64,000 nt of DNA from Candidatus Saccharimonadota bacterium (lineage in GTDB: Bacteria; Patescibacteriota; Saccharimonadia; CAILAD01; BJGX01): assembly GCA_046350735.1 (NCBI GenBank), contig JAXLZU010000001.1:684462-748461 (forward strand), read 5' to 3'. Below, in pieces: positions 1 through 31,983 of the stretch (position 1 is its first letter; each line of letters opens with the position of its first letter). The position numbers and the translations under genes were made by a program. The notes under the pieces were generated by a model. That model was not told the DNA's origin and did not search any database. It worked only from the letters and a program-made list of their open reading frames with translations.

Positions 1-3000
1 AACTGCTAATATACCCTCCTGCAAAAGATCCTGCGCCACTAGCTGTGCCGCTCCCCGTTGCAAAGGCGCCTGTATTTGTAGCACGGGCGTTATTAAAAGC
101 AGCAGAGTATGCACCAGTTGCTTGGGTACCGTTACCAAACGCAATTGCAAATTCATTACTCGCAGTAGAGTTAGATCCTCCCGCGAGCGAGCCGAGACCA
201 CTAGCCAAAATTGCCCCGTCGCGTGATGCACCAATAGCAAACGATCCCTCTCCGGTTGCACTGATTGTATAACTGCCCGATCGACCAAAAGCAAAAGATC
301 CGTTGTTGCTTGATGTTATTGCTACATTTGCGTATCCCCCAGCAAATGAATAGCCGCCACTAGAGGTAACTAGTGTCGAACCAAAAGCAGACGCCCCTGT
401 CCCACTTGCTGTTGCGTAGTTGGCAGCAAATGAGTAATCGCCAGATGTTTGGCCAGCGTTGACTGCCATAGAGGCCGTAGCATTGGCGCGAGAGCCCAAA
501 CCAAATGCTACAGAGCGGGTACCATTAACATTATTGGCGGCAACGTTATCACCAAAGGCAAATGAACCATCAGCCTGGGCAGTTACTGTACCATTTTGAG
601 CAAATCCACCCACAAACGAGCCTCGTCCACTAGCAACCAATGCCGTAACACCGCCAAAAGCACAATAGCCCATACTAAATGCTTCGTCATTACTTGCAGT
701 ACTACAACCCGCCGCAAACGAATACGCACCGGTTGCTGTACCACTATTAAATGCTGCCGATGCAATAGCATTGGTACCAGTAGTGGCACTATAACCAAAA
801 GCAATACTATAATGGGCATTCGTTCCGGTCGATGCATTATTACCACCAGCAAAAGAACCCACTCCAGCAGCAGTAATAGCACCATTGTCTGAAGATCCAA
901 ATGCTAGTGAGCCTCGGCCGCTAGCAGTAATAGGATTAACATTGTAACCCCCAGCGAACGACTCAAGTCCGCTGGCAGTACCACCACCCACTGCAAACGA
1001 ATAGTCACCACTTGCAAGAGAAGCGCCTGCTGCGGTTGAATAATTTCCACTAGCTGTGCTACCTTGCATAGCTACACCACCATTAGTACCGATGCTTATA
1101 CGGGGCGTATTGGCGGTTTTAATTGTAAGTGTGTAGTTGTCGTTGGTACCGAGTGATGCTGCCGTACCGTATGTATTACCACCATTTAAGAAACAAGTTG
1201 GGCAAGCCCCGATTACAATACTTGAAATCGCGTTATCAACATAGTTTCTGTCTACCAATGAAAATGGTTGATATGCGTAGTGTGCGGCATATTGCAATCC
1301 TGTACCGTCACCACTGGTGATAGTAGTTGTATTGTTGAGCGATATCGTTGTACTGCTGGCAGTGAGGTTGAGTGCACCGGTATTATTCTGAATTGTTTGA
1401 TTGCCTCCAGTGAGAGTAATGCCGTTATTAATAGTTGTTAGACCTGCCTGACCAACTTTAAATACTGGAGTACCAGCACTCGTTTGAGCCTGGAACAAAT
1501 CAGCCACCTGTGCAGCCTTACCTTTGAGTACACCAACCACCGCATTTACATCAGAGCTCTGAATGTTGTAGTTAGCATTTACCTGGGTAATGGTACCATT
1601 ATTAATACCGCCGCTACTAGTGCTCGTACAACCACTACTATCACACACCAACACACCATTTATACGCAGGCCAGTACTAGAATTAATATCACCAGTGACA
1701 TCGAGCGGCCAACTAGCCGAGGCAGACCCAATGGCAACCTTATTGGTAGTACTGTCTATATTAAATAGAGTGGTGCCGCCTGAGTTAATAATTTGCAACT
1801 CGTGTACCGAATCTACACTATTTTGTTGAGAAATAGTGCCGGTAAAGCTATTATTACCTGTAAATGCCTGATTGGCATTTAGTTTGGCCAAGTTGGTACC
1901 ATCGCTGAGATTAGAACTACTTATCTGCAGCCCGTTTACATAATACTTATCAGTAGTATTAAACCCACCGCCAGTATAAACTTCTGCAATCGTACTACCT
2001 CCCGAGCTTTGGAATTGCAGCAGATCAGAGCTTTGTCCACCCAACTGCTTAATAACTCCGGTTGGTAAAATCGTACTCGAAGACTGAATAAAGAAATTGG
2101 CCGCACTTTGCTGGCTCGTGGTGTTTTGAATATAGAACCCGCCACCACCACTAGCGTTACAGCCAGTACTATCACACACAATATTACCACCCACACGCAA
2201 ATGGGTTCCGGCATTAATATCTCCTGTAGCGTCAATAGCATAACCACCTGCTGCACCGTTTACTCTCAATTCAGTGGCGTTTGCAACTAAGGTTGTACCG
2301 CCAATTGTAACGGTTGTACCGTTATCGCTAATATTACTATTACCAATAGTATTGGCAGCAGTAAATTTGGGGATAGTATTAGCTGTACCGCCTGGGGTAC
2401 TCACATTACCACTGCCACCACCGCCACAGGCACCACCCGCGGTAGTACAGATAGTGTAGGTACCAGGTGTTGCCGCAGCATCAAACTGATACGTCACACT
2501 CCCTGTTGGCACACCGGTAAAACCAACTGTTGTTGTAAATCCACCGGTGGTAGATGTCCAACTAGTCGAGCCATTTCCGCGCAAGCTTAGGTTTTGCCCA
2601 GTAACGCCAATGGTCATAGCTCCGGTTGGAGTTAGGGTATTCACTGTAATTGGTTGCGTAAAGGCATTAGTACCAATAAATGTTTGGTTAGCATCAAGCA
2701 AAGCAACATTAGCAGTCAATCGAGCATCGGCCAGTGTACCACTCGTAACAAAGCTAGCGTTCAAACTTGTTAAATTTCCCCCATTGAGTGTTGGCAGATA
2801 CCCCAATGCATTTAACTGCACTAACTGATCTGCTCCGTTAAATGTGTTGCCTTGCAGGGTAACTGCACCTGGCAATCGAGCTGAATCTAAGGTGCCAGCG
2901 GTAATATTGTTTGCATCTAAATTAGTTAAGCCCGCACCATTACCAAAAAATTGAGTAGCGGTAACGGTACTAGTAAATACTGCTGAGCCTGTAGGGCTAA

Positions 3001-3838
3001 TGGTGAGCCGATTGGCTCCACTGGTGCGCAGCGAAACAGCATAATTGTCATTGGTACCCATTGATACAGGTGCACCAAAACTATCTCCGCCATTATTTAG
3101 ACATGTAATACAGCCCGATGCATTACCCCAAGTAAGATTGCCATTGCCATCATTGGTTAGAAACCCTTGTTGTTGCGACGCTGGAAAACTGTAGAGAAGA
3201 TTGCCAAAGAGCACTGCAGCGGGTAAGCTTACTTGCCCAGTAAAGGTATTATTACCGGTAAATGTTTGGTTCTTATTGAGCAGTGCTACATTTGCACTCA
3301 AGCGAGCATCATTGAGCGTACCAGAAGTAATATTATTGGCATTTAAATTAGTAAGGTCAGCACCGCTACCATTAAATGTGTTTGCTGTAACCGACCCAGC
3401 AACTTGTGTATTGCCATTTACAATAACAAGGCCATTAGCATTTGCTACTTTGTTTGTATTTAAGCCAGCCAAATCTGTCGAAGTAACGGCAAACTGACCA
3501 CTCGACTTACTACCACCCTTATTTGTAAAGAAGAGCCAGCCACCCAACAGTAACAAAAATACTAATACTGCAACACCGGTATAAAACAACATACGCACCC
3601 ATCGAGTACGTTGCCAGGCAGAATGCTGCTTAATGGCTTGCTGACTGTTAGTAGAGGTGTGAGAGGCAGTATTATTAGTAAAAACTTCCTCACTTAGTGG
3701 AGATTGCTGGATTAGTCGAGAAGAAAAAAGTTCGTTAGAAATATTCTGTGAAGTCGGCGAATTACCGGCCTTTTCTTGACCGGAATTTGCATTGGCTGCA
3801 AAGTTACTTTTTGGATTATTTTCGGGTTTCACTGCCAC
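1..3838 (-). CDS. Giant membrane-anchored surface fibre/adhesin-like repeat protein, partial: the window holds its N-terminal 1270+ aa and the C-terminus lies before position 1. It has an N-terminal cytoplasmic tail, one TM helix (LFYTGVAVLVFLLLLGGWLFF), phage-tail-fibre-like GTLxxARLxxNVALLNxNQTFTG repeats and YadA-head/Hep_Hag-like SxAxG repeats. The start is ambiguous (TTG/GTG near 3830-3841, or ATG at 3592).
   Basis: I translated the minus strand by hand from 3838 to position 1 without meeting a stop. The ORF track misses it because the ORF runs off the window edge. The N-terminal tail plus TM are homologous to the 803-aa (24055..26466) and 503-aa (10695..12206) proteins. Composition is G/T/S/N/A-rich with repeats. 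Confidence 0.6.
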   Translation of the reverse strand, partial: MAVKPENNPKSNFAANANSGQEKAGNSPTSQNISNELFSSRLIQQSPLSEEVFTNNTASHTSTNSQQAIKQHSAWQRTRWVRMLFYTGVAVLVFLLLLGGWLFFTNKGGSKSSGQFAVTSTDLAGLNTNKVANANGLVIVNGNTQVAGSVTANTFNGSGADLTNLNANNITSGTLNDARLSANVALLNKNQTFTGNNTFTGQVSLPAAVLFGNLLYSFPASQQQGFLTNDGNGNLTWGNASGCITCLNNGGDSFGAPVSMGTNDNYAVSLRTSGANRLTISPTGSAVFTSTVTATQFFGNGAGLTNLDANNITAGTLDSARLPGAVTLQGNTFNGADQLVQLNALGYLPTLNGGNLTSLNASFVTSGTLADARLTANVALLDANQTFIGTNAFTQPITVNTLTPTGAMTIGVTGQNLSLRGNGSTSWTSTTGGFTTTVGFTGVPTGSVTYQFDAAATPGTYTICTTAGGACGGGGSGNVSTPGGTANTIPKFTAANTIGNSNISDNGTTVTIGGTTLVANATELRVNGAAGGYAIDATGDINAGTHLRVGGNIVCDSTGCNASGGGGFYIQNTTSQQSAANFFIQSSSTILPTGVIKQLGGQSSDLLQFQSSGGSTIAEVYTGGGFNTTDKYYVNGLQISSSNLSDGTNLAKLNANQAFTGNNSFTGTISQQNSVDSVHELQIINSGGTTLFNIDSTTNKVAIGSASASWPLDVTGDINSSTGLRINGVLVCDSSGCTSTSSGGINNGTITQVNANYNIQSSDVNAVVGVLKGKAAQVADLFQAQTSAGTPVFKVGQAGLTTINNGITLTGGNQTIQNNTGALNLTASSTTISLNNTTTITSGDGTGLQYAAHYAYQPFSLVDRNYVDNAISSIVIGACPTCFLNGGNTYGTAASLGTNDNYTLTIKTANTPRISIGTNGGVAMQGSTASGNYSTAAGASLASGDYSFAVGGGTASGLESFAGGYNVNPITASGRGSLAFGSSDNGAITAAGVGSFAGGNNASTGTNAHYSIAFGYSATTGTNAIASAAFNSGTATGAYSFAAGCSTASNDEAFSMGYCAFGGVTALVASGRGSFVGGFAQNGTVTAQADGSFAFGDNVAANNVNGTRSVAFGLGSRANATASMAVNAGQTSGDYSFAANYATASGTGASAFGSTLVTSSGGYSFAGGYANVAITSSNNGSFAFGRSGSYTISATGEGSFAIGASRDGAILASGLGSLAGGSNSTASNEFAIAFGNGTQATGAYSAAFNNARATNTGAFATGSGTASGAGSFAGGYISS

Positions 3839-3955
3839 CAATTTTACTTAATACAAAAACATCTCTAGGCACAAGGCACCTGTTATTATTCTAATGCTTT
3901 TAACTTGTTAGCACAAGAGTTTTGTAGATTAAATACTGTAATGTTTATTACAAAA

Positions 3956-6356
<2,401 letters not shown>

Positions 6357-6359
6357 TGG

Positions 6360-7775
6360 TTATGCCACTCCATCCTTTAACGTCTTGGCGATTAACTTGG
6401 TTACCACTTCGTCACTTTGAGGTTTATGAATAGGAAGCTTTTTCTGTACTAGTCGTTTTAATTTATCAATATCGAGCTGACCAGCGCCTTTATTTCCCAA
6501 CACAACTTCTATCATTGCTCTTTGTTGCGGCAAAGAGAAGAAATCATTTGGTTCTTGGCTAAGCGACTCTGTTAGTTGTCGTCCAATCTCTATCTCTTGC
6601 TGAGCAAAATCGCTCATCTGATCACTAAACCGTGTATACTCTTCGGCACTGCGAAAATTTGATAGTTCTTGCATAACCTTAGCCGAGAGCTGTTGCATGG
6701 TCGGATTTTGACTACGACCACCAATACGACTGACAGAGAGGTTAATATTAATTGCCGGCATTATACCACGACGTAATATTTCGGTATCAAACACAATTTG
6801 TCCGTCTGTCATAGAGATTAAGCTGGTTGCCTGATACCCGGTGAGATCGTTATTGGGCGTTGCACCTGCTACTAAAATAGTCTGGCTAAACCCAGTAGCT
6901 TTTAATTTGCCAGCTCGCTCTAAAAGAGCCGATTGCACGTGGAACATATCACCTGGGTAAGCCTCACGACCAGCATTATTACGAAGTAACAGTGACATTT
7001 CTCGGTAGAGTTTGGCAAAGTTAGAAAAATCATCATATAGCACTACTACATCTTTCTTTTGATGCCAGAAATACTCAGCTACCGCACAACCAGCGTATGG
7101 TGCTAATACACCAAGAGGCAATGATTCTCCGGCAACTGTTACCACGAGAGTGATGTGTTGCATTACCCCGGCTTTTTTAAAGACCTCTACTAGTCGATTA
7201 ACTTCAATGCGACGTTTGGCTATTAATACATATACTACCGATTTACCCGACTTAGCCTGTGCAATTGCTACTTGGGTCATAAACGAGGTTTTACCCGACT
7301 TACTATCTCCCATAATTGCAATGCGTTGACCTTTTACAATAGGGAGCAAGGTGTCTACATAACTCACACCAGTAACGAGCTGTTCGTTAAGATCGTCACG
7401 TTCTTGAAAATTAGGAGCACTGCGAAAATATGGTACTTGGCTACTGGTAGCAAGATAGCCTCGGCCATCAAGCGGTTTACCAAGTGGGTCGATAACTCTG
7501 CCAACAATACCTTTGCCTACTGGTAAGCTAATGCTTTCTGATTGCAACGCTACCAGCTCACCAGCTCGTACGGGCTGATTATTTAGCAGCAATATTTCTA
7601 GGCCATCTGTGTCTATTTGCCAAACCACCCCTCTTGCTCCACCAGCAAATACCACCTCTGCAAATACTGGTGCGCCAGCCAATGGTGTGGTGAGCACAAT
7701 ACATTCTCGTACTGCCACTACCTCGGCAGTAGCTTTAGTCTTGGTAACTCGTGTTTTTGGTTCTACCTTAGGCAT
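6360..7775 (-). CDS. atpA: F1-ATPase alpha-like subunit (copy 1).
   Basis: GQRIAIMGDSKSGKTSFMTQ (alpha P-loop), YVLIAKRR, LAPYAGCAVAEYF, VLYDDFSNFAKLYREMSLLLRNNAGREAYPGDMFHVQSALLERAGKL. These are near-canonical alpha motifs, including the arginine-finger region. Confidence 0.85.
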   Translation of the reverse strand: MPKVEPKTRVTKTKATAEVVAVRECIVLTTPLAGAPVFAEVVFAGGARGVVWQIDTDGLEILLLNNQPVRAGELVALQSESISLPVGKGIVGRVIDPLGKPLDGRGYLATSSQVPYFRSAPNFQERDDLNEQLVTGVSYVDTLLPIVKGQRIAIMGDSKSGKTSFMTQVAIAQAKSGKSVVYVLIAKRRIEVNRLVEVFKKAGVMQHITLVVTVAGESLPLGVLAPYAGCAVAEYFWHQKKDVVVLYDDFSNFAKLYREMSLLLRNNAGREAYPGDMFHVQSALLERAGKLKATGFSQTILVAGATPNNDLTGYQATSLISMTDGQIVFDTEILRRGIMPAININLSVSRIGGRSQNPTMQQLSAKVMQELSNFRSAEEYTRFSDQMSDFAQQEIEIGRQLTESLSQEPNDFFSLPQQRAMIEVVLGNKGAGQLDIDKLKRLVQKKLPIHKPQSDEVVTKLIAKTLKDGVA

Positions 7776-8211
7776 GTTGCAACCTTTCTACTAACTTTTC
7801 AGAATTTGCAAACAAGTTAGATCGCAATGACAAATCGTACACCTGCCCACTGGTGCGTAGCACACAGCCAGCCAGTAAATCGCTGTTTTGTGCAATATGT
7901 ATCATAGTGTGGGGATGAATATGTGAACGAAACCAACCAGTGAGTTCGTTTAACTCCTCGCCATTTGGCATACTGGCTACCACGAGTGAAATTTGCGGAC
8001 TCGATGATAATAATGCTTTTAGATAAGATACCAATTTGGCTTGCGTGGCAATTGTTAGACTACCAATCGCATTTGTCTGAGCAAATTCTTGCAAATGAGT
8101 GGGCCATTTTTGAGGCAAGACCAAAACAGCCGGCTTAAGTTTTTCTACCTCACTGAGTAATGCTTCTATTTGCTGAGAGCTAGAGAACGAATTGGGTAGT
8201 CTATACGCCAT
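7768..8211 (-). CDS. atpH: F-ATPase delta/OSCP-like subunit (147 aa).
   Basis: Position between b and alpha. C-terminal LLAGCVLRTSGQVYDLSLRSNL resembles the delta C-terminus (IIGGvvvrvGd.viDgSvrg.L). Overlaps alpha by 8 nt. Confidence 0.45.
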   Translation of the reverse strand: MAYRLPNSFSSSQQIEALLSEVEKLKPAVLVLPQKWPTHLQEFAQTNAIGSLTIATQAKLVSYLKALLSSSPQISLVVASMPNGEELNELTGWFRSHIHPHTMIHIAQNSDLLAGCVLRTSGQVYDLSLRSNLFANSEKLVERLQHA

Positions 8212-8769: not shown

Positions 8770-9594
8770 TTACCCTCGAATTATTATTTTAATGATAACA
8801 AACGCCACTATAAAAATCACCGCAATCATTCCTACCACTTGTAACAAACTTAAGAAAATAGCGTTCTTTGCGGTTGGGTTACGGCCTATAGAGCGAATAC
8901 TGCTTGAGGCGCTAGAGTAGAGAATAACCAGCGAAACCACCACGGCAATTAAGATAATAATGGTTACCAAAATTGTTCTCTCGGTAGATACAGTTTTGCC
9001 ACTAGCACCATTCAGTATTTGCTGTAGTGGCAATAATACAGCCGGCACAGATGGTGAGCTAGACTGGTAATCACTAACGTTCACCACTACGGGTAGTAAA
9101 CGAATATTTGCAGTTGTAGTATTACCATCTTTAGCAGTTAGGACGCGAGTTTGAGTAGTCTGGTCTTTGCCTGCAGTAGCAAAACTTTGTGCTGCCGTAC
9201 CCAATACACGGGTTGACTGTGTAGCCTTCATTACAACCCCAGCAATTGGCGAAGCAGTAAGCTGATCGCCTACTTGTATCTCGCCATTAATATCGGTTGC
9301 AGCAACTTTGGCTTGTCCGTCTGTAATAATTGGGGGGCGTGCCGTGCCGCTAACATTTATCACCACATCGCTCGACCCTACTGCAACACCATACAGATAT
9401 TGCTCATTACCGGCCACAGCGAGACTAATTGTATTGTCTTTTAGTACCACCGCAGCACCAGCCACCACGTCTGGTTGTATTTGATACGACTGAGTAGATA
9501 GGCCTTCTGCCAAAACGGCAGCCGGAGTAAATAAGATTGCCAACGCAAAAAATACGGCAACGATGCGTGTATAACTATGGTTAATCCAACTCAT
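8770..9594 (-). CDS. Signal peptide, then a roughly 165-aa extracellular domain, fused to a C-terminal c-subunit-like helical hairpin (TM1-GRNP loop-TM2) that lacks the ion-binding carboxylate (Gln in its place). It occupies the atpE/atpB position of the operon.
   Basis: N-terminal MSWINHSYTRIVAVFFALAILFTPAAVLA-EG is a signal peptide. The C-terminal ...SIRSIGRNPTAKNAIFLSLLQVVGMIAVIFIV aligns with c-subunit ...[29 protein letters not shown]: the RQP/RNP loop and the MIAV segment are shared, and Q sits where D61/E sits. There is no D/E in either TM. A paralog lies at 30446..31291. Confidence 0.5.
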   Translation of the reverse strand: MSWINHSYTRIVAVFFALAILFTPAAVLAEGLSTQSYQIQPDVVAGAAVVLKDNTISLAVAGNEQYLYGVAVGSSDVVINVSGTARPPIITDGQAKVAATDINGEIQVGDQLTASPIAGVVMKATQSTRVLGTAAQSFATAGKDQTTQTRVLTAKDGNTTTANIRLLPVVVNVSDYQSSSPSVPAVLLPLQQILNGASGKTVSTERTILVTIIILIAVVVSLVILYSSASSSIRSIGRNPTAKNAIFLSLLQVVGMIAVIFIVAFVIIKIIIRG

Positions 9595-9699: not shown

Positions 9700-10701
9700 T
9701 TATGGTGTAACTGGAGAGGTATTTTTTAGCTGCTGAATATCTTTAGCTTGCTGCTGCACCATCTGAGTAAGCTTATCAATTTGATTCTGTTGGTCTTTGA
9801 GTTGCTGTGTATTCTCGTCTACCCGCTTCGTCAATGCCAGTAAGTCATCACTTAGGCTAGTAAGTTTAATACCTTGCTCAGAGAGTTGTTGGTTAGTTTT
9901 GTCTAAGTTACCGTTTTGTTCTTTTACTGCCTGGACAATATATGGCATTACACCCTCTTTATTTAGAGTTAGTGTTCCGTCTGGTAAAGTCGTTACCAAA
10001 TTTGGCAATACTTTGGCCACATCTTGAGCAATAAAACCAGCAACTTTATCACCTTCTGGGTTAACTTTCCAGTTGTAAGTAACTCCCTGAAGTTGATTAA
10101 TAACGTCTAGTCCATTAGAAATACTTAATATATTTGTTTTTAGTTTGGCATCTGAAACACAACTGAGCGAGCCTGCATTGGTGTCTACAGTACAAGTACC
10201 ACTCGTACCCGTAAAGCTAGCAGGTGTGTCGTCGCTCGTATCAGTAACATCAAGCTTGTTAGCGGGTGCGTTTGTACCAATACCAAATTTACCGCCAGAA
10301 ATATTCACCCAGCTATCATTACCCTTGTTATTTATTCGAGTATTTATGTTGCCAACACTATCAGAACCAATAAACGAATAGTCATATGGTCCGGCCCCAA
10401 CATCAGAAATAGTTGCACTATTACCAATAAATAATGAGTGATTTAACCCGCTAAGCGTGAGGTCTTGGCCTATTACCATACTGTAGTCTACATTAGTAAG
10501 GCTCGATGGTGTGACAGCTAGCGGATCGCTAGTGTCGACATTCAACAAATCTCGGTTGGAAGAATAGATGTTTGTCCATCGTGAATTTCCAACCAATCCT
10601 CCACTATCATGAATATCAAACCTAATATTATAGCCGGCATCACAACCAAATGGCCCCAAAGGAACATCATTATTACAGTAACCTCCATGCGTACCTACCA
10701 A
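9700..10701 (-). CDS. C-terminal part of a fibre protein carrying a Peptidase S74 / intramolecular chaperone auto-processing domain (CIMCD) and a C-terminal coiled coil. It is probably one gene with 10695..12206, disrupted by a frameshift.
   Basis: SDAKLKTNILSISNGLDVINQLQGVTYNWK matches the S74 CIMCD signature (S-D-x-x-L-K-x-N-I...L.GV.Y.W). The ORF track start is a TTG directly after the stop of the upstream ORF, in a frame offset by 1. Confidence 0.6.
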   Translation of the reverse strand: MVGTHGGYCNNDVPLGPFGCDAGYNIRFDIHDSGGLVGNSRWTNIYSSNRDLLNVDTSDPLAVTPSSLTNVDYSMVIGQDLTLSGLNHSLFIGNSATISDVGAGPYDYSFIGSDSVGNINTRINNKGNDSWVNISGGKFGIGTNAPANKLDVTDTSDDTPASFTGTSGTCTVDTNAGSLSCVSDAKLKTNILSISNGLDVINQLQGVTYNWKVNPEGDKVAGFIAQDVAKVLPNLVTTLPDGTLTLNKEGVMPYIVQAVKEQNGNLDKTNQQLSEQGIKLTSLSDDLLALTKRVDENTQQLKDQQNQIDKLTQMVQQQAKDIQQLKNTSPVTP

Positions 10702-12206
10702 TTCATTGCATTATTCACATCAGCTAGATGGATTCCACCATACAATCCACCTGAAGAATTTACAACAGATTCAACAATATTACCTGCACCGCCGTATATC
10801 CCATTAATTGAAACCGATCCCTGAAATCCTCCAGTAAAATGCGAAAGATTTTGAATAGTAGCAATACCTGCTATCGGACCATTTGCCATGATATTCGACC
10901 AACTACTATCAGTAATGTTGGTACTAAAGCCATTAATATTCGACCAGTCTACGTTGTCTAATCCTAATACAAAACCTGTTGCATTTGTATTGGTGGTATC
11001 TGAAGCCGTTACAGATACACCTGTCATAGCTGAACGAGTAGTATTGGTAATGTTTATATCACTACCAATAAATGCACTGTCTGAAACTCCGCTAAGGTTT
11101 ATGTTCGAACCGTTAGCAGTAACTCTAGATAGGTTTAACAAAGTTCCATTATTAGCCTGAATTATTGAAGTATCAACATTTGTTGCACTTCCAGCATTGA
11201 TTCTTATGAGACTATTTAGTCCAAAATTAATAGTAGAATTACCTTGTAGACCAACAATAGCATTACTACTATTAGTAATACTACTTCCTCCGTCTGCTCC
11301 ACCCAGTATATTTGAACTATCAGTAACCGTAAGGTTACCACCAAAACTACCAAATTGACCCATTAGGTTACTAGAGCCATTTACTGTAGCTCCAACAAAC
11401 TGGCCTACCATTCCGTATCCACCGGTAATATTGCTTCCAAGACTATACAATAGATTGTAGCCTGTACCATTTAGCGTTGAGTTGTGTGCCCAACCAATAT
11501 TGTAGCTAGAGTCAATAATAGTTGCCGATTCGGTTTGTAAAATATTAGCACTAGAATTAGTAAATGTTGAAGCACCTGGGGCAAAACCCCCTGTTGGAAT
11601 TACGAAATTACTATCAGATGTACCGCTAAAGCTTGATTGCCCAAAACCACCCACCGTGGCCAGTTTGTTTGGGATAATGTTTCCAAGTGCATCGATTTTT
11701 AATGAATTAGTACTAGCCGTAACTACTTGCAGATCTTGATTATCTAAAGTACCGAGCTGTGCTGTAGCTCCGTAGCTGTTACCATTTTGGCAAAAATATG
11801 TGCCAGCAACTACACATGGATCGGTCGGGCCCGATGGACCAGTTGGACCAGTAGATCCAGCTATGCCCGGCGTACCCTTAGAACCATTAGCTCCAGATGG
11901 TCCCGGTTGACTATTAACATTGAGTGGTAATGTTATAGAGTTACCACCAGAAATACTGAGCTCATTACCATTTAACGAAAGTACAGACATATTCTTAGGC
12001 TGATTGCCGCTAATAGTAGTTTCGTTACACAGCACATTGTTCAAACCTAACAAACGAATATACCACACATCAGTACAGAGACCACGCAGTATAATGAGTA
12101 TAAGTAAAAATACTACAGCAAGACCAACTAGTAGCCAAAACAACCACCAATGAGAATTGCTATTGTGCTGCTCGCCCTGAACAGAATTTTGTCCTGGTTG
12201 ATCCAT
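10695..12206 (-). CDS. N-terminal part of the fibre protein: cytoplasmic tail, TM helix, collagen-like G-x-x repeats (GPSGANGSKGTPGIAGSTGPTGPSGPTDP), and beta-helix-like N/S/T/G repeats.
   Basis: TM is HWWLFWLLVGLAVVFLLILIILRGL. It is homologous in architecture to the 803-aa protein at 24055..26466. It ends at a TAG one nucleotide out of frame with the 333-aa ORF. Confidence 0.55.
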   Translation of the reverse strand: MDQPGQNSVQGEQHNSNSHWWLFWLLVGLAVVFLLILIILRGLCTDVWYIRLLGLNNVLCNETTISGNQPKNMSVLSLNGNELSISGGNSITLPLNVNSQPGPSGANGSKGTPGIAGSTGPTGPSGPTDPCVVAGTYFCQNGNSYGATAQLGTLDNQDLQVVTASTNSLKIDALGNIIPNKLATVGGFGQSSFSGTSDSNFVIPTGGFAPGASTFTNSSANILQTESATIIDSSYNIGWAHNSTLNGTGYNLLYSLGSNITGGYGMVGQFVGATVNGSSNLMGQFGSFGGNLTVTDSSNILGGADGGSSITNSSNAIVGLQGNSTINFGLNSLIRINAGSATNVDTSIIQANNGTLLNLSRVTANGSNINLSGVSDSAFIGSDINITNTTRSAMTGVSVTASDTTNTNATGFVLGLDNVDWSNINGFSTNITDSSWSNIMANGPIAGIATIQNLSHFTGGFQGSVSINGIYGGAGNIVESVVNSSGGLYGGIHLADVNNAMNW

Positions 12207-13669: not shown

Positions 13670-13746
13670 GGGCGCGTAGCTCAGATGGTTAGAGCGCGTC
13701 ACTGATAATGACGAGGTCCCTGGTTCAATTCCAGGCGTGCCCACCA
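13670..13746 (+). tRNA. tRNA-Ile (anticodon GAT), CCA encoded.
   Basis: Cloverleaf read by hand: acceptor GGGCGCG/CGTGCCC, D-arm GCTC-AGATGGTTA-GAGC, anticodon arm CGTCA-CTGATAA-TGACG, T-arm CCTGG-TTCAATT-CCAGG, then ACCA. Confidence 0.9.
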
Positions 13747-13764
13747 GAAAAATATTTACAATAC

Positions 13765-13841
13765 GGGGCATTAGCTCAGCTGGCTAGAGCACCTGCTTTG
13801 CAAGCAGGGGGTCCGGGGTTCGAATCCCCGATGCTCCACCA
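13765..13841 (+). tRNA. tRNA-Ala (anticodon TGC), with the G3:U70 identity pair and CCA encoded.
   Basis: GGGGCAT...GCTC-AGCTGGCTA-GAGC...CCTGC-TTTGCAA-GCAGG...CGGGG-TTCGAAT-CCCCG-ATGCTCC-A-CCA. Confidence 0.9.
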
Positions 13842-16127: not shown

Positions 16128-17672
<1,545 letters not shown>

Positions 17673-17714
17673 AAAAAGAAAAGTGATCAAGACCACAAAG
17701 ACAACTATTTCTTT

Positions 17715-26584: not shown

Positions 26585-26848
26585 TTAGATATTTGCAAAT
26601 ACTACTACATAATTGTTGTGTACTTTTACAACACCTCTATTAATATCGTAGCTGCGACGACCAAATGGGGTATGTATTGTTACCTTGCCCTGTTGTAATA
26701 AACCAATAAAATTAGCATGGCCATAGAGTACGTCAAAAGGGCCAGTAGCTGTGTTGGCAGATAGGCTAGCAGCCGGACCTTCGTAAAAGATTTCGAATGG
26801 TGAAAAAATCTTTATACTTAGTTGGTTTGTCTTAGTATTTGCCTGCAT
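26585..26848 (-). CDS. F1-ATPase epsilon-like subunit, beta-sandwich only (copy 2).
   Basis: 87 aa. FSPFEIFYEGPA...GPFDVLYGHANF. Paralog of 3956..4210. Confidence 0.5.
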   Translation of the reverse strand: MQANTKTNQLSIKIFSPFEIFYEGPAASLSANTATGPFDVLYGHANFIGLLQQGKVTIHTPFGRRSYDINRGVVKVHNNYVVVFANI

Positions 26849-26852
26849 TGTA

Positions 26853-28184
26853 TTACGTGCCCGCCAAAATTTCTTCTACACCCGCAAGCATATCCTCACG
26901 CGACACATACTCACCATCATTGCCAGTAAGTGGCTGCACAACAAACAAATTCTGAGCAAAGTATGCTACTAGGCGCTTAGCCTTTTGATAATCACTCCTA
27001 TCATTAAGAGAGAGCTCGCCCTCACCTATAATCGAGATAATGTTACGAAGCTCATTGTATTTGCTGAGTATTGCCTGTACCTGGGTAGCCAAAATATAAT
27101 GCCGTTCGCCAACAATCTCGGTCGTTAGCAAAGAAGACTGAGTAGCCAATAAATCAATTGCCGGAAAGATGCCTCGCTCCATTACATCACGACTAAGTAC
27201 AATTACCGAGTCGAGTTGTTGATAAATTTCTACTACTGCAGGGTCGCTAATATCATCGGCTGGGATATAGATAGATTGTACCGACGTAATTGATCCATTC
27301 TCGTTGCTATCTAGGCTGTCTTCAAATCGTACAAGATCGGTAAATAGAGTAGGCTGATAGCCACCCTCAGATGGTTGCTCACCCAGCATTATAGAGAGTT
27401 CATTACGCGCTTGTAAGAATCGGTAGATATTATCAACGAAGAAAAGTACATCTTGTTTTTGATTGTCTCGCCACCACCGTGCAGCTGCAGCGGCAGTTGG
27501 CCCTACCATACTCCTGGCGGCTGCCGACTCATTCATTTGCCCCAAATACATAACGCTTTCTTTGAGGAGATTTGCTCCCTTGAGATTTTCATAAAGCTCA
27601 TGTGCTTCGCGAATGCGCTCACCAATACCCACAAAGAATGATGCACCAGCACCAGTCTGACTTACATTGTGCATTAACTCAGTTACTAGCACTGTTTTGC
27701 CTACGCCTGCCCCACCAATAATTCCAATTTTTCTCCCTTTAACAAATGGTGCAAAGAAATCAATGGCTTTTATGCCAGTCTCAATAATCTCCCCTGAGTA
27801 TGTCTGTGCATTTTTGGGGGCTAGCGCAAACTCAACAGGAGCGGTCTGAACCTTTTTAATAGCTGCAGAATCATCGAGCGTTTCACCCAGAGAGTTAAAT
27901 ACTCGACCAAGTGTAGATTTGCCTACTGGTATTTGTAGCTGTTCTTGGTAGAGCTCGCAGAATGATCCGAGTGGTAAGGCAGCATCCCCACCAATACTTA
28001 GTACAACTGCCTTGGTAGCACCACTATAGCCTAGTATCATTAATCGCGAATGTTGGTCGTTAGCCACTCGCAAAATAGAACCAATTTTCGGTAAAATCTC
28101 ACCAAATTCTAACTCATAGGTAATACCGCGAGCGGCAATTATTTTTCCCCGGGCAGGTGATTTACTTACGTGATTATGCTTCAT
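26853..28184 (-). CDS. F1-ATPase beta-like catalytic subunit (copy 2).
   Basis: [76 protein letters not shown]. Confidence 0.85.
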   Translation of the reverse strand: MKHNHVSKSPARGKIIAARGITYELEFGEILPKIGSILRVANDQHSRLMILGYSGATKAVVLSIGGDAALPLGSFCELYQEQLQIPVGKSTLGRVFNSLGETLDDSAAIKKVQTAPVEFALAPKNAQTYSGEIIETGIKAIDFFAPFVKGRKIGIIGGAGVGKTVLVTELMHNVSQTGAGASFFVGIGERIREAHELYENLKGANLLKESVMYLGQMNESAAARSMVGPTAAAAARWWRDNQKQDVLFFVDNIYRFLQARNELSIMLGEQPSEGGYQPTLFTDLVRFEDSLDSNENGSITSVQSIYIPADDISDPAVVEIYQQLDSVIVLSRDVMERGIFPAIDLLATQSSLLTTEIVGERHYILATQVQAILSKYNELRNIISIIGEGELSLNDRSDYQKAKRLVAYFAQNLFVVQPLTGNDGEYVSREDMLAGVEEILAGT

Positions 28185-29032
28185 ATAAGCCCCTCTCTAT
28201 CTCTTACAAATACTCGTGTAGCGGCATCTCGGTTTTGGCGCTGCTGCCTACGATAACTTCTATATACATCAGATTTTAGCTCGCCCGCCGCGGTAGAAGC
28301 AGAGCTCATTGCACGAAATCTACTAGCCAGTTGAGCCAGACGCGATTCTAAGATTAATTCAGTTAGTGCGGTGGCACGCATCATACTTTCTAGATAGGTT
28401 ACTACCTCCTCAAGAGAAGGCTCAAATATATAGTCTGATGCAAAAATAAGTGTCGTATTGGTTTTATTAGCCTCGGCCTCACTAAGCCTTGCTATACCAC
28501 CCACCAATTCAAACACCTGAACTTGTTGGGTCGTTAAATTAATAAACTGCTCAAAATATACCACGCATGTCCGATAATCTTGAGTGGCTGAAATAATTGG
28601 CACAACGTTAACGGGCCTAGTGATATCTGGTAATGGATAAACTCTGGTAGGTATTACACCTTTATTGCGCAATAATTTAGCGCCTTTTTTACCAATTACA
28701 TAAAAGTCTGTGGTTTGTTCATTTACCGAACCAAGTACTTCGTCCACCAGTTCTTCGTCAATACTGCCAGACAGTGTATCTTCTGAGCTAATAAGAATAA
28801 CAGCTGTACGATTAAGACTGCGAGTAGGTAGCAAGCTAGCCACAGGCGAGTTGGCATCTACACGCAACTGTACATACATACTCCAGAGCTCGTGAAAAAA
28901 GTCGCGACTAGCAACTACACGGTCACGTATCTGACGAATCTGAATACTGGTAATACTCTCAAAAACCTTTGTAACCTCTTCGATGGTTTCTAGGTCGGTA
29001 TACTGACGGTACATTTCTTGGCTTTTACTCAT
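28181..29032 (-). CDS. F1-ATPase gamma-like subunit (copy 2).
   Basis: 283 aa between alpha-like and beta-like. Paralog of 5520..6356 with the same N-terminal pattern (TKVFESITSIQIRQIRDRV versus THIFENVASIRIRQIKEQV). Confidence 0.6.
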   Translation of the reverse strand: MSKSQEMYRQYTDLETIEEVTKVFESITSIQIRQIRDRVVASRDFFHELWSMYVQLRVDANSPVASLLPTRSLNRTAVILISSEDTLSGSIDEELVDEVLGSVNEQTTDFYVIGKKGAKLLRNKGVIPTRVYPLPDITRPVNVVPIISATQDYRTCVVYFEQFINLTTQQVQVFELVGGIARLSEAEANKTNTTLIFASDYIFEPSLEEVVTYLESMMRATALTELILESRLAQLASRFRAMSSASTAAGELKSDVYRSYRRQQRQNRDAATRVFVRDREGLI

Positions 29033-30456
29033 TGTTTTACCGCCGGCTTACTCTTTAATAGTTCTGCTGCAATCTTAACATATTGCTCTGGCTTAATTTC
29101 TTCTCCGGCCACATCATGAATAATACTCTTTAGCCAAGCAATACTGACATCTTCGGGTTTGTCTGACTGCATAAGAGCATCGAGCATAATAAATTGTTCT
29201 TTGGCAGAGTATTGTTCGCTAGGCAATTGAGTAAATAACTCATACAGTTTTTCACCACGTGCAATTTCACTTTTGACTGTTTCTGACTGGTCAGACCCAA
29301 ACCGAGCAAAATCTCGCGCTTCACGGTAATTGGCAAGCCTTGCGATAACTGCTCTAGACAGTTTCTGAAACTGCTGACTTTGAGAGCGTCCACCGACACG
29401 ACTAACTGATAGGTTAACATCAATAGCTGGGCGAATGTTACGAGCCATAGTCTCAGCATCAAAAACAATCTGCCCATCTGTCATAGAAATAAGACTAGTA
29501 GATAGATAGCCGGTGATATCGCCGGTAGGGTTAGTGCCAGCTGCCAAGACTGTCTGCGTAGCACCATTGCGCCGTAACTTGCCAGCCCGTTCTAGTAGAG
29601 AAGAGTGCATATAAAACATATCGCCAGGATAGCCATCACGGCCTGGCGGCTGCTTAAGTAGAAGTGATAGCTCTCGATACATTTTGGCATGTGCACTAAG
29701 ATCGTCATAAAACACTACTGTATCTTTGCCTTGACGCCAAAAACTCTCTGCCAATGCACAACCAACATATGGTGCAATAAAAGCCGCCGGTAGACTATCA
29801 AATGCATCAGCAATCACAAGGATGGTTTTATCTATTACTCCAGCATCAGCTAAGCGCTGCTGCAAGCGAGCAACATCATAGCGACGTTTGGCAATTGCAA
29901 CATAGACAATCACACAATCTTGATTTTTTTGATGAGCTGCAACCTGGCTCATAAAAGTTGTTTTACCAGTTTTATTATCACCAATAATGGCAATACGTTG
30001 CCCTTTAACAATCGGGAACAATGTATCTACCATTAAGACGCCGGTCTCGAGCTGTTCATTAACAATAGCGCGTTCGTGAAACGTTGGTGCCGCGCCAAAA
30101 ACTGGTAGAGGAGTACCACTAGGCTCTACTTTCTTGCCATCAATGGTTTGCAGTAATGGGTCTACACTATGACCAAGAATGTTATTATCGGCTCTCACAT
30201 AGAGGCTATTACCGGCAAGTTTTGCACTAGTACCCACCACTACTTTAGAATTACGTGCTAATAATAAGACGGTAACCGACTGCTCAGATACTTGCCATAT
30301 TAGTCCTGCTTCACCTGTGCCAAATTTCATCACGCCACCCACTGTAGCCTCAGCAATTGGTTCGGTATGCGCTATGCAATCAAAAAGAGAGATAACTTTG
30401 ACACTCTTTGCTTTATTGGATATTGTGTGATCTTCTTTCATATAGTTACCGTCCAA
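29029..30456 (-). CDS. F1-ATPase alpha-like subunit (copy 2). The start may be the internal ATG at 30441.
   Basis: GQRIAIIGDNKTGKTTFMSQ, YVAIAKRR, APYVGCALAESF, VFYDDLSAHAKMYRELSLLLKQPPGRDGYPGDMFYMHSSLLERAGKL. Confidence 0.85.
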   Translation of the reverse strand: MDGNYMKEDHTISNKAKSVKVISLFDCIAHTEPIAEATVGGVMKFGTGEAGLIWQVSEQSVTVLLLARNSKVVVGTSAKLAGNSLYVRADNNILGHSVDPLLQTIDGKKVEPSGTPLPVFGAAPTFHERAIVNEQLETGVLMVDTLFPIVKGQRIAIIGDNKTGKTTFMSQVAAHQKNQDCVIVYVAIAKRRYDVARLQQRLADAGVIDKTILVIADAFDSLPAAFIAPYVGCALAESFWRQGKDTVVFYDDLSAHAKMYRELSLLLKQPPGRDGYPGDMFYMHSSLLERAGKLRRNGATQTVLAAGTNPTGDITGYLSTSLISMTDGQIVFDAETMARNIRPAIDVNLSVSRVGGRSQSQQFQKLSRAVIARLANYREARDFARFGSDQSETVKSEIARGEKLYELFTQLPSEQYSAKEQFIMLDALMQSDKPEDVSIAWLKSIIHDVAGEEIKPEQYVKIAAELLKSKPAVKQ

Positions 30457-31291
30457 TTATTAAATATACTATTGAGAATCCAGAAAGCATAATTACCACT
30501 ACTGCAATAATTACTTGAATTAAACTTTGTAAAATAGAATGTCGACTAAGTGGATTTCGCCCTATAGAGCGTATGCTGCTTGCTACTGCGGTATAAAGAA
30601 TAAGTACTGAGATAACTACCGATATAAGCAACACCAATAACGCCAAGAGTGCCCTAGCTGTTGAAATACTCTTGCCCGTTGTACTTGTGGCCACAGCTTG
30701 CACTGCCGAAATAATTCCATTACCAGTAAGTGTTGGTTGGTTTTGATAATTACCCACTATAATGTTGGCCGAGACCTGGCCTAGAGCTACTTCACTCGTC
30801 TCGCCTTTCTTATTGGTAATACTTTGACGAGAAGTGGCATTACCTGCACTAAAACTATTCGTTGCAGTACCAACAATTTTACCCGCAGCAGTAGCTTTCA
30901 TGGCAACACCTGCTATAGGCGATGTAGTCAGCGAGTCTCCTTTGGCAATATCACCATTTATATTACTTACCAATATTACAGCATTGCCCGCAGTAACCAC
31001 TAAGGTATTGCCATTGTTAGAATTAAGATTTACTAGGCTGGCCTGAGAGGCAACTGTCACCCCCAATAAATTATCGGTGTTACTCGAGTTAGCTGGAATA
31101 ATTTGCGAGCTACTACCCTGTTGAAGCGCCACCAAAGAACCGGCTGGAATGGCAGAAGATGCAGTGTAGCTCTGACTAATAGTATCAGCTCTAGCAGCTA
31201 GTATTTGTATCGCAACAAATACTAACGACAAGACAAGACTAGCAACTGGGAGAAAATATTTTTTTAGCATACCAAAAACCATTCGCCTCAA
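30446..31291 (-). CDS. Signal peptide, extracellular domain, then a c-subunit-like hairpin with Gln at the carboxylate position (copy 2 of 8770..9594).
   Basis: ...VASSIRSIGRNPLSRHSILQSLIQVIIAVVVIM. The IRSIGRNP loop is identical to copy 1. The middle domain shares ING(D/E)I..GD.LT.SPIAGV.MKAT...GTA..SF with copy 1. No D/E in the TM helices. Confidence 0.5.
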   Translation of the reverse strand: MRRMVFGMLKKYFLPVASLVLSLVFVAIQILAARADTISQSYTASSAIPAGSLVALQQGSSSQIIPANSSNTDNLLGVTVASQASLVNLNSNNGNTLVVTAGNAVILVSNINGDIAKGDSLTTSPIAGVAMKATAAGKIVGTATNSFSAGNATSRQSITNKKGETSEVALGQVSANIIVGNYQNQPTLTGNGIISAVQAVATSTTGKSISTARALLALLVLLISVVISVLILYTAVASSIRSIGRNPLSRHSILQSLIQVIIAVVVIMLSGFSIVYLIIGR

Positions 31292-31362: not shown

Positions 31363-31983
31363 TTATTCAGTACGAAAACGGTTTAGGATAAGTTCGGCAG
31401 CAATTCCGAGAAGTGCACCGAGAACCAATAATATGGGTAAAAGCCAGCTGGGCATACCATAATTATAAAACCGAGCTATGGCATACACCGTTATACCGGC
31501 TGCCAACCCTACAACACTACCACCAATAAGGGCAGAGGGGCGCAAAATAGTCTTACCGGCAACATCAGAAACTTTTTCGACAGCGGGGTTATGAATAACT
31601 TTAGAGAACGTTCGGCTTCGGCGAGGCAATTGAGCCTGTACTATCTTTACTTCTTTTTTATATACTGCTGCTTTTTCTTTTTTTGTATAACTTGCAGCCG
31701 GTTTGGCTTTTGGCGGTTTTTTTTCTACTTTTTCGATTTTTTCGGCATCTTTGCGCTCACGTTCTAAATCGGCCTCGCGCTTCTTTTCGGCATCAGCCTC
31801 ACGCTTTTTTTCGGCACTTAGATTTCGCTCGGCAGCCTCATGGCGACGAGCCAAATCTTTTTCACCAGCTTCTATCTCGGCCTTACTAACCTCTGGAGCT
31901 TTCTCTTTTTCGAGTTTTTTTAGCTGGCTTACTTCGAGTTTCTCGGCGCCACTCTCTGGCTCTAGTTCGGCTCTATCTGCCAT
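31363..31983 (-). CDS. Charged coiled-coil protein with two C-terminal TM helices. Possibly a reversed-topology stator/stalk-like component of cluster 2.
   Basis: Highly charged E/K/R-rich repeats (AEKKREADAEKKREADLERERKDAEKIEK), then TM helices GGSVVGLAAGITVYAI and WLLPILLVLGALLGIAAELIL. Overlaps the upstream gene by 1 nt. Confidence 0.35.
   Translation of the reverse strand: MADRAELEPESGAEKLEVSQLKKLEKEKAPEVSKAEIEAGEKDLARRHEAAERNLSAEKKREADAEKKREADLERERKDAEKIEKVEKKPPKAKPAASYTKKEKAAVYKKEVKIVQAQLPRRSRTFSKVIHNPAVEKVSDVAGKTILRPSALIGGSVVGLAAGITVYAIARFYNYGMPSWLLPILLVLGALLGIAAELILNRFRTE

Follow-up and report, generated by a model that had tools for sequence, protein, structure and literature searches.

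Two F1-like ATPase gene clusters in a Saccharimonadia genome are headed by a secreted two-helix membrane protein that may descend from ATP synthase subunit c

Until now, descriptions of F1-like ATPases that lack a proton path have come from mycoplasmas only, in connection with gliding and with the MIB-MIP system. The Type 3 F1-like X0 ATPase (MSC_0618-0624 / MMCAP2_0575-0581) is needed for MIB-MIP antibody cleavage (PMC12994834, PMC3369863) and was called mycoplasma-specific in a 2026 paper (PMC12994834), while the Type 2 G1-ATPase of Mycoplasma mobile (MMOB1610-1670) is the gliding motor and is believed to move surface 'legs'. Clusters of Type 2 and also of Type 3 include a gene whose product combines a signal peptide and a large ectodomain with two C-terminal transmembrane (TM) helices (PMC12994834, PMC3369863). 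Two clusters of F1-like genes, each headed by a gene for a protein of this general layout, are present in a 64,000 nt stretch from a Candidatus Saccharimonadota bacterium (assembly GCA_046350735.1, contig JAXLZU010000001.1, positions 684,462 to 748,461 of the forward strand; the whole stretch is called the window below). The two proteins, X1 and X2, are members of a family that we refer to as X. The explanation we prefer, to which we give about even confidence, is that X is the coupling subunit, probably derived from subunit c, of an F1-like motor that does not depend on ions and works on surface fibres. The genes of cluster 1 (first seven lines) and cluster 2 (remaining five) are as follows.

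8770..9594, minus strand: X1, 274 aa; open reading frame (ORF) 100% identical to U0516_03830, a hypothetical protein in NCBI from a Candidatus Saccharibacteria metagenome-assembled genome
8211..8768, minus strand: b-like protein, 185 aa, with an N-terminal TM and a long helix; named from architecture and operon position
7768..8211, minus strand: delta (OSCP) homologue, 147 aa; Pfam OSCP E = 0.0036
6360..7775, minus strand: F1-like alpha 1, 471 aa; PF00006 E = 8.5e-60
5520..6356, minus strand: F1-like gamma 1, 278 aa, very divergent; PF00231 E = 1.4e-21, PDB gamma chains at about E = 1e-4
4207..5532, minus strand: F1-like beta 1, 441 aa; assigned by Pfam, motifs intact
3956..4210, minus strand: epsilon 1, 84 aa, the N-terminal beta-sandwich alone; PF02823 E = 6.9e-12
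30446..31291, minus strand: X2, 281 aa, paralogue of X1; ORF
29029..30456, minus strand: F1-like alpha 2, 475 aa; 44.9% identical to alpha 1
28181..29032, minus strand: F1-like gamma 2, 283 aa; ORF
26853..28184, minus strand: F1-like beta 2, 443 aa; ORF
26585..26848, minus strand: epsilon 2, 87 aa, the N-terminal domain alone; 43% identical to epsilon 1 and completing cluster 2

The gene order is X1-b'-delta-alpha-gamma-beta-epsilon in cluster 1 and X2-alpha-gamma-beta-epsilon, without b or delta, in cluster 2; X is the first gene of both, and adjoining genes either overlap slightly or lie end to end, to within a few bases. X occupies the slot of atpE, the gene for subunit c, directly before b'-delta-alpha-gamma-beta-epsilon. 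The delta family profile matches ATP synthase delta/OSCP chains in the PDB (best E = 2.9e-7), and since delta is a true OSCP homologue, cluster 1 derives from a whole atp operon with X in the c slot. The label 'b' rests on architecture and position, because the family profile of the b-like protein finds only amphipathic-helix proteins (apolipoprotein-type) in the PDB; nor did Pfam subunit b match the 185-aa protein. Neither subunit a nor an ordinary subunit c was found in either window cluster or in 81 related loci, and where a c gene would stand between a and b, with its product acting against a, the genes upstream of X encode fibres. The beta sequence has an intact Walker A (GGAGVGKT), GER motif and Walker B (LFFVDN). 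The F1 subunits match their own Pfam families and fall below every NCBIfam equivalog cut-off, with 324 bits for atpA (cut-off 484), 410 for atpD (463), 62 for gamma (194) and 35 for epsilon (67). Epsilon 2 had been hidden by the 100-aa minimum of the ORF list, and an epsilon-like ORF also lies behind beta in loci of other genomes that have the cluster 2 order (type B, see below). We considered and rejected the possibility that a c gene was mis-called in what are otherwise ordinary ATP synthase operons, given the missing a gene, the unreached equivalog cut-offs and the lack of a mid-membrane carboxylate.

The main landmarks of the X proteins are as follows.

X1, aa 1-29, about 30-180, 185-198 and 204-274: signal peptide, ectodomain, helix and TM hairpin, respectively
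8773..8985, minus strand: X1 hairpin, with the G-R-N-P turn at 8875-8886 and Gln252 at 8839-8841
30551-30562 and 30515-30517, minus strand: G-R-N-P turn and Gln259 of the X2 hairpin

X1 and X2 share 35.7% identity. An earlier note on this DNA had flagged the last 70 codons of X1 (8770-8982) as one of two copies of a c-like hairpin; both ORFs are present with the C-terminal sequences that it quoted, and the signal peptide and external domain of about 165 aa that it described were seen in both proteins. Small residues mark the predicted cleavage sites (VLA before EG in X1, ARA before DT in X2), and the ectodomain, of about 150–170 aa, is rich in beta structure. The AlphaFold2 model of X1 (mean predicted local distance difference test score 88.9, built on 77 family members) consists of a helix at 7-21, a beta domain at about 37-176, a helix at 185-198 and hairpin helices at 204-238 and 240-273, with the break between the last two exactly at G237-R-N-P240. 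The modelled helices, the hydropathy, and the signal peptide and ectodomain upstream all indicate a two-TM hairpin with both termini outside, and the topology proposed earlier, with the N-terminus outside as in c and R-N-P in a cytoplasmic loop, matches this architecture. The G-R-N-P turn is invariant (121/121 family members) and is the sole conserved cytoplasmic feature of X, and the distance from loop to C-terminus is 34 residues in 114 of the 121, similar to that of c subunits. The hairpins had also been described as free of acidic residues, which holds for the membrane part of both, but X1 has E205 at the outer end of TM1.

The window clusters share several features with the Type 3 system of mycoplasmas. 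Both have alpha/beta/gamma/epsilon-like genes without a and c, both (by the published descriptions of MSC_0620 and MMCAP2_0577) have a partner in which a signal peptide and an ectodomain precede two C-terminal TM helices with a short loop between them, and in both ATP energy is proposed to pass across the membrane to surface proteins. They differ in that the mycoplasma clusters encode a 12-TM 'Protein 1' and a small cytoplasmic 'Protein 2', neither of which is found in the window clusters, in that delta and a b-like stalk are retained in cluster 1, in the size of the partner (274 aa for X1 versus about 770 aa) and in the host, here a Saccharibacterium. With the Type 2 motor they share the F1-like head and the signal-peptide/two-TM partner (MMOB1650), whereas the N-terminal extension responsible for the twin motor is absent from the window beta, and the jellyfish or PGK context is missing. 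The NCBIfam models for MSC_0619/MSC_0618 and MMOB1660/1670 were not reached, alpha scoring 214 (cut-off 520) and 286 (600) bits and beta 385 (570) and 340 (850), and the full X proteins matched no mycoplasma MSC or MMOB partner family in NCBIfam. The window alpha and beta are no closer to MSC_0618/0619 than to ordinary F1, and beta is about equally similar to ordinary F1 betas, with the G1 beta the weakest among the PDB beta matches listed. The cultivated oral species Southlakia epibionticum has the canonical order atpI-a-c-b-delta-alpha-gamma-beta-epsilon and one alpha/beta pair only, and no description of an F1-like or rotary ATPase of the kind reported here was found in the literature on Saccharibacteria or Patescibacteria.

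Compared with subunit c (PF00137), X has the same N-out/C-out hairpin, R-(Q/N)-P loop, loop-to-C-terminus length and gene slot. The loop sequence, IGRNP, is identical to that of the c subunits of Chloroflexi, a group thought to be the source of the F-type ATP synthases of the candidate phyla radiation (CPR; PMC10656485). When the X hairpins were compared by hhalign with 13 real Chloroflexi c subunits the probability was 77%, and the best PDB match of the hairpin profile (177,635 sequences) was the subunit c of Chloroflexus ATP synthase (E = 0.2, only the loop aligned). Descent of the X hairpin from subunit c appears plausible rather than proven, and we lean towards it.

Several results weigh against this descent. 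The hhalign match to Chloroflexi c spans just 23 columns around the loop and is driven by IGRNP, and against a profile of eight diverse c subunits the hhalign probability was 4%; a HMMER profile of the same eight, applied to all ORFs of the 81 loci and the window, detected no canonical c and gave no significant match to X. The alignment with F-ATPase c subunits claimed earlier thus stands over the loop for Chloroflexi c and fails for general c profiles. The check with the Pfam ATP-synt_C profile, suggested at the same time, had a similarly divided outcome: full X proteins were not matched at E <= 1, nor were most isolated hairpins, but 2 of 50 were (best E = 0.009), and then none of 10 further ones. 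A fold match is non-specific for a long helical hairpin, and a published table likewise pairs a type IV secretion system pilin with the subunit c fold. TM1, which is ILVTIIILIAVVVSLVILY in X1 and LLALLVLLISVVISVLILY in X2, is bulky and beta-branched and lacks the GxGxGxG motif of c-ring packing, where Chloroflexi c has GPGIGIGI. A search seeded with a Chloroflexus c fragment returned Chloroflexi c subunits alone, with no Saccharibacteria c and no intermediates. X further differs from c in having no carboxylate at the ion-binding position (see below), no subunit a partner, and an N-terminal extension of about 200 residues outside the cell.

The essential carboxylate of real Chloroflexi c subunits, a Glu, lies 18 residues past the loop proline (Pro+18). 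Since loop-anchored alignments of X with c contain no gaps around the loop, both in HMMER against the Chloroflexus subunit c and in hhalign against the real Chloroflexi c subunits, the c carboxylate corresponds to Pro+18 of X, which is Ala in X1, Val in X2 and F, V, L, A or I across the family. The conserved Gln is at Pro+12. By family hydropathy the hydrophobic cores of the hairpin extend over Pro-33..-15 and Pro+10..+32, so that the Gln is 2–3 residues into a hydrophobic stretch and level with a near-invariant Tyr at Pro-14; these boundaries and the Tyr place it at the cytoplasmic membrane interface. Of 121 homologues, 94 have Q at this site, 21 have E and six have another residue, with H, S, A, T, L or R seen in paralogues from GTDB loci, and Q and E have been swapped several times in the neighbor-joining tree. 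The Pro+12 residue is a polar interfacial residue and not an ion site. The headline of the earlier note, a Gln exactly where the essential Asp/Glu sits, is therefore incorrect. Its match to the MIAV segment of c requires a gap of six residues, in columns that are not conserved in the family. The Gln in both window copies, the presence of Q or E at this site in 115 of the 121 homologues and the R-N-P loop would suit a true c-ring subunit of an F1-driven rotor, whose ion site would be locked or neutral because of a Gln at the carboxylate position, but the hydrophobic Pro+18, the boundary position and variability of Pro+12, the repeated Q/E interchange and the unconserved MIAV columns make this very improbable. 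With both the mid-membrane carboxylate and the Gly-rich packing motif missing, X cannot carry ions.

In structural comparisons, the modelled beta domain of X shares its fold with the C-terminal domain of phage tail-spike proteins (phi29 gp12, the pre-neck appendage) and with phage capsid-decoration or head-fibre base proteins. Foldseek against predicted viral structures gave 25 matches at E <= 0.001 (best 2e-7), and those with names are pre-neck appendage, tail and tail-fibre proteins. At the sequence level no phage match was found for X, as PHROGs returned nothing for X1 and X2 and the Pfam family Phage_cement_2 gave E = 0.88. The most conserved stretch of X apart from the loop, SDINGEIKxGDxITASPIAGVGMKAT, is in the ectodomain. 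While phi29 gp12 and the decoration proteins are carried on the virion, the X domain is tethered to the cell membrane. The phage relatives are trimers, and an ectodomain of 18 kDa per protomer fits poorly on a tight c-ring.

The hairpin profile matched at least 839 clusters (50% identity representatives) at E <= 0.001, and in all of the top 150 the hairpin is C-terminal, full-length members being about 250–316 aa. A scan of GTDB gave 234 species loci, those with names being nearly all Saccharibacteria/Saccharimonadia, and the X family is specific to Saccharimonadia. Gene contexts were counted in the best 80 of these loci plus the window. In type A, X is followed by (b')-delta-alpha-gamma-beta-epsilon (47 genes), and in type B by alpha-gamma-beta-epsilon (7 genes, all with Q at Pro+12). 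In a third context (16 genes, most of them with E) X stands directly before the gene for a protein of 1,500–3,300 aa and no F1 gene lies within 10 kb, and the fourth is a small, deep X clade with S, A or T at Pro+12. Linkage to F1 genes was seen for 53 of about 85 X genes examined, and the type A order recurs in dozens of species. In the neighbor-joining tree the giant-linked genes group together as one clade surrounded by type A genes, which weakly suggests that linkage to F1 is the older state. X genes can also be paired: in one genome there is an X gene at both ends of an F1-like cluster (L051 4315-10935) and in another two are in tandem (L055 3830-5527), a hint at hetero-oligomers of X paralogues. 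The translated sequences of giant-linked loci show a conserved neighbourhood of about 6–11 kb (L020, L022, L024, L026, L039, L048, L058 and L078) in which parA-like, parB-like and signal peptidase I-like genes are followed by X and the giant, and the giants of this neighbourhood start with a conserved N-terminus, MENxNQNT.

Genes for membrane-anchored fibre-like proteins adjoin the X-F1 clusters of the window as well.

1..3847, minus strand: start of a giant fibre protein of >1282 aa that runs off the left end of the window; begins about 108 nt after epsilon 1
9700..12206, minus strand: two fibre-like genes upstream of X1 (spans 10695-12206 and 9700-10701), encoding a collagen-like protein of 503 aa with an N-terminal TM and a Peptidase_S74 protein of 333 aa
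24055..26466, minus strand: downstream of epsilon 2, N-anchored fibre protein of 803 aa that includes a Peptidase_S74 domain (endosialidase intramolecular chaperone)

The giant ORF has about 80 cytoplasmic residues, one TM and tail-fibre-like repeats, in keeping with giants in general, where a short cytoplasmic N-terminus and one TM are followed by a very large external region. Its homologues include the 1,500–3,300-aa proteins found behind X or X-F1 clusters elsewhere in Saccharimonadia, and the large proteins that follow epsilon in many loci of types A and B are likewise homologues of the X-linked giants. Pfam found nothing in two giant neighbour proteins. Related loci also carry a gene for a fibre of about 800 aa in the place corresponding to that of the 803-aa protein.

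About a quarter of the X genes adjoin a giant with no F1 gene within 10 kb and keep the same loop, so the partner of the loop need not be gamma or epsilon, which also counts against the explanation preferred here. X might instead be the membrane base or assembly chaperone of giant trimeric fibres, without descent from c, its hairpin being an ordinary anchor, its R-N-P turn convergent and the F1-like genes inserted beside an older X-plus-fibre module, to which they would couple in some other way or not at all. X-plus-giant pairs without F1 genes, present in at least 16 loci, are the main support that keeps this alternative alive; the phage tail-spike C-terminal fold of the ectodomain (an autochaperone fold), the failure of general c profiles and the generic fold of the hairpin are consistent with it. 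The majority of X genes are F1-linked, however, and the giant-linked ones are one nested clade, X is found exactly at the atpE position before b-delta-alpha-gamma-beta-epsilon, and its IGRNP is identical to the Chloroflexi c loop, with the hhalign probability of 77%. We regard this alternative as fairly unlikely.

On the preferred explanation, of X as a coupling subunit, the hairpin would have been kept in a copy of the atp operon from which subunit a disappeared and in which a secreted domain was added ahead of c. The gamma/epsilon foot of the F1-like ATPase encoded with X could then dock on the conserved loop. In F1Fo the N-terminal domain of epsilon joins gamma to the c-ring, and a rotor contact fits because epsilon has been kept as this domain only and X keeps a c-type loop. 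Hydrolysis of ATP in alpha3beta3 would turn or tilt gamma-epsilon-X relative to a membrane-anchored stator, formed in cluster 1 by delta and the b-like protein. For cluster 2 a substitute stator is possible in the product of a gene that is conserved upstream of type B X genes:

31363..31983, minus strand: protein of 206 aa, highly charged and helical in its N-terminal part, followed by two TM at the C-terminal end

The movement would cross the membrane to the X ectodomain and pass on to the large trimeric surface fibres encoded alongside, the whole being a mechanotransducer of the 'F1-like X0' kind that consumes ATP and is independent of ions. A more specific form of this proposal is a ring (or trimer) of c-derived hairpins bearing external tail-spike-like domains, turned by F1 with ATP alone and without an ion channel, which does work on giant fibres and arose independently of the mycoplasma motors; this we put forward tentatively, as something short of likely. 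The bulky first helix and the trimeric phage relatives argue against a tight c-ring. For an epibiotic CPR bacterium, the outputs of such a rotary motor might be, for example, fibre assembly, fibre retraction, host attachment or gliding.

The absence of b and delta from cluster 2 also raises the possibility that X is itself part of the stator, anchoring the F1-like head to membrane and wall, with the output elsewhere, such as at the cytoplasmic tail of the giant fibres. The same role has been raised for MMCAP2_0577 (PMC12994834), and an ectodomain that binds wall or fibre would be expected to resist rotation. Yet cluster 1 and most of the related clusters already have b-like and delta genes, and the retained epsilon N-terminal domain and R-N-P loop fit a contact with the rotor, so that a stator role for X seems distinctly unlikely.

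The window clusters reveal a second and widespread lineage of F1-like ATPases without a proton path, in Saccharibacteria, which in cluster 1 keeps delta and a b-like stalk and whose membrane partner sits in the slot of subunit c and retains a c-type R-N-P loop. If the hairpin is c-derived, X would be a natural intermediate in the rewiring of a rotary ion pump into a cell-surface motor, and its G-R-N-P loop a sequence-defined handle on how torque leaves such motors; the clusters bear on the evolution of rotary motors and on the biology of the cell surface in epibiotic CPR bacteria. For Saccharimonadia, chemiosmotic capacity may be overestimated in metabolic reconstructions where alpha, beta and gamma genes are taken as 'F-type ATP synthase'. 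In the KEGG Orthology (KO) table of a 2025 survey (PMC12592800, supplementary Table S5), several bins of the order CAILAD01 appear with alpha/beta/gamma/epsilon and no a/b/c, and other bins with a/b/c and two copies of alpha/beta/gamma. Such counts fit F1-like clusters being counted as ATP synthase, and no comment on them was found in the main-text passages of the survey that were searched.

Upstream of cluster 2, the 206-aa protein is paired with a 783-aa PKD protein that ends in LPQTG and a TM (a sortase-type anchor), the two together covering 31363-34334 on the minus strand. The pair is conserved upstream of type B clusters and occurs also in L019, L023, L027 and L040. Just upstream of the cluster 2 block is a gene for an 834-aa TraG/VirD4-like coupling ATPase (34416-36920, minus strand), which suggests that type IV secretion genes lie near cluster 2. 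The window also holds a bacterial 16S rRNA gene and a tmRNA gene. There is no 23S rRNA gene in the 64 kb, and the rRNA locus is unlinked and rearranged: tRNA-Ile and tRNA-Ala at 13670-13841 (plus strand) and the 16S rRNA gene at 16131-17676 (minus strand) are on opposite strands and converge, with an ORF of 319 aa between them.

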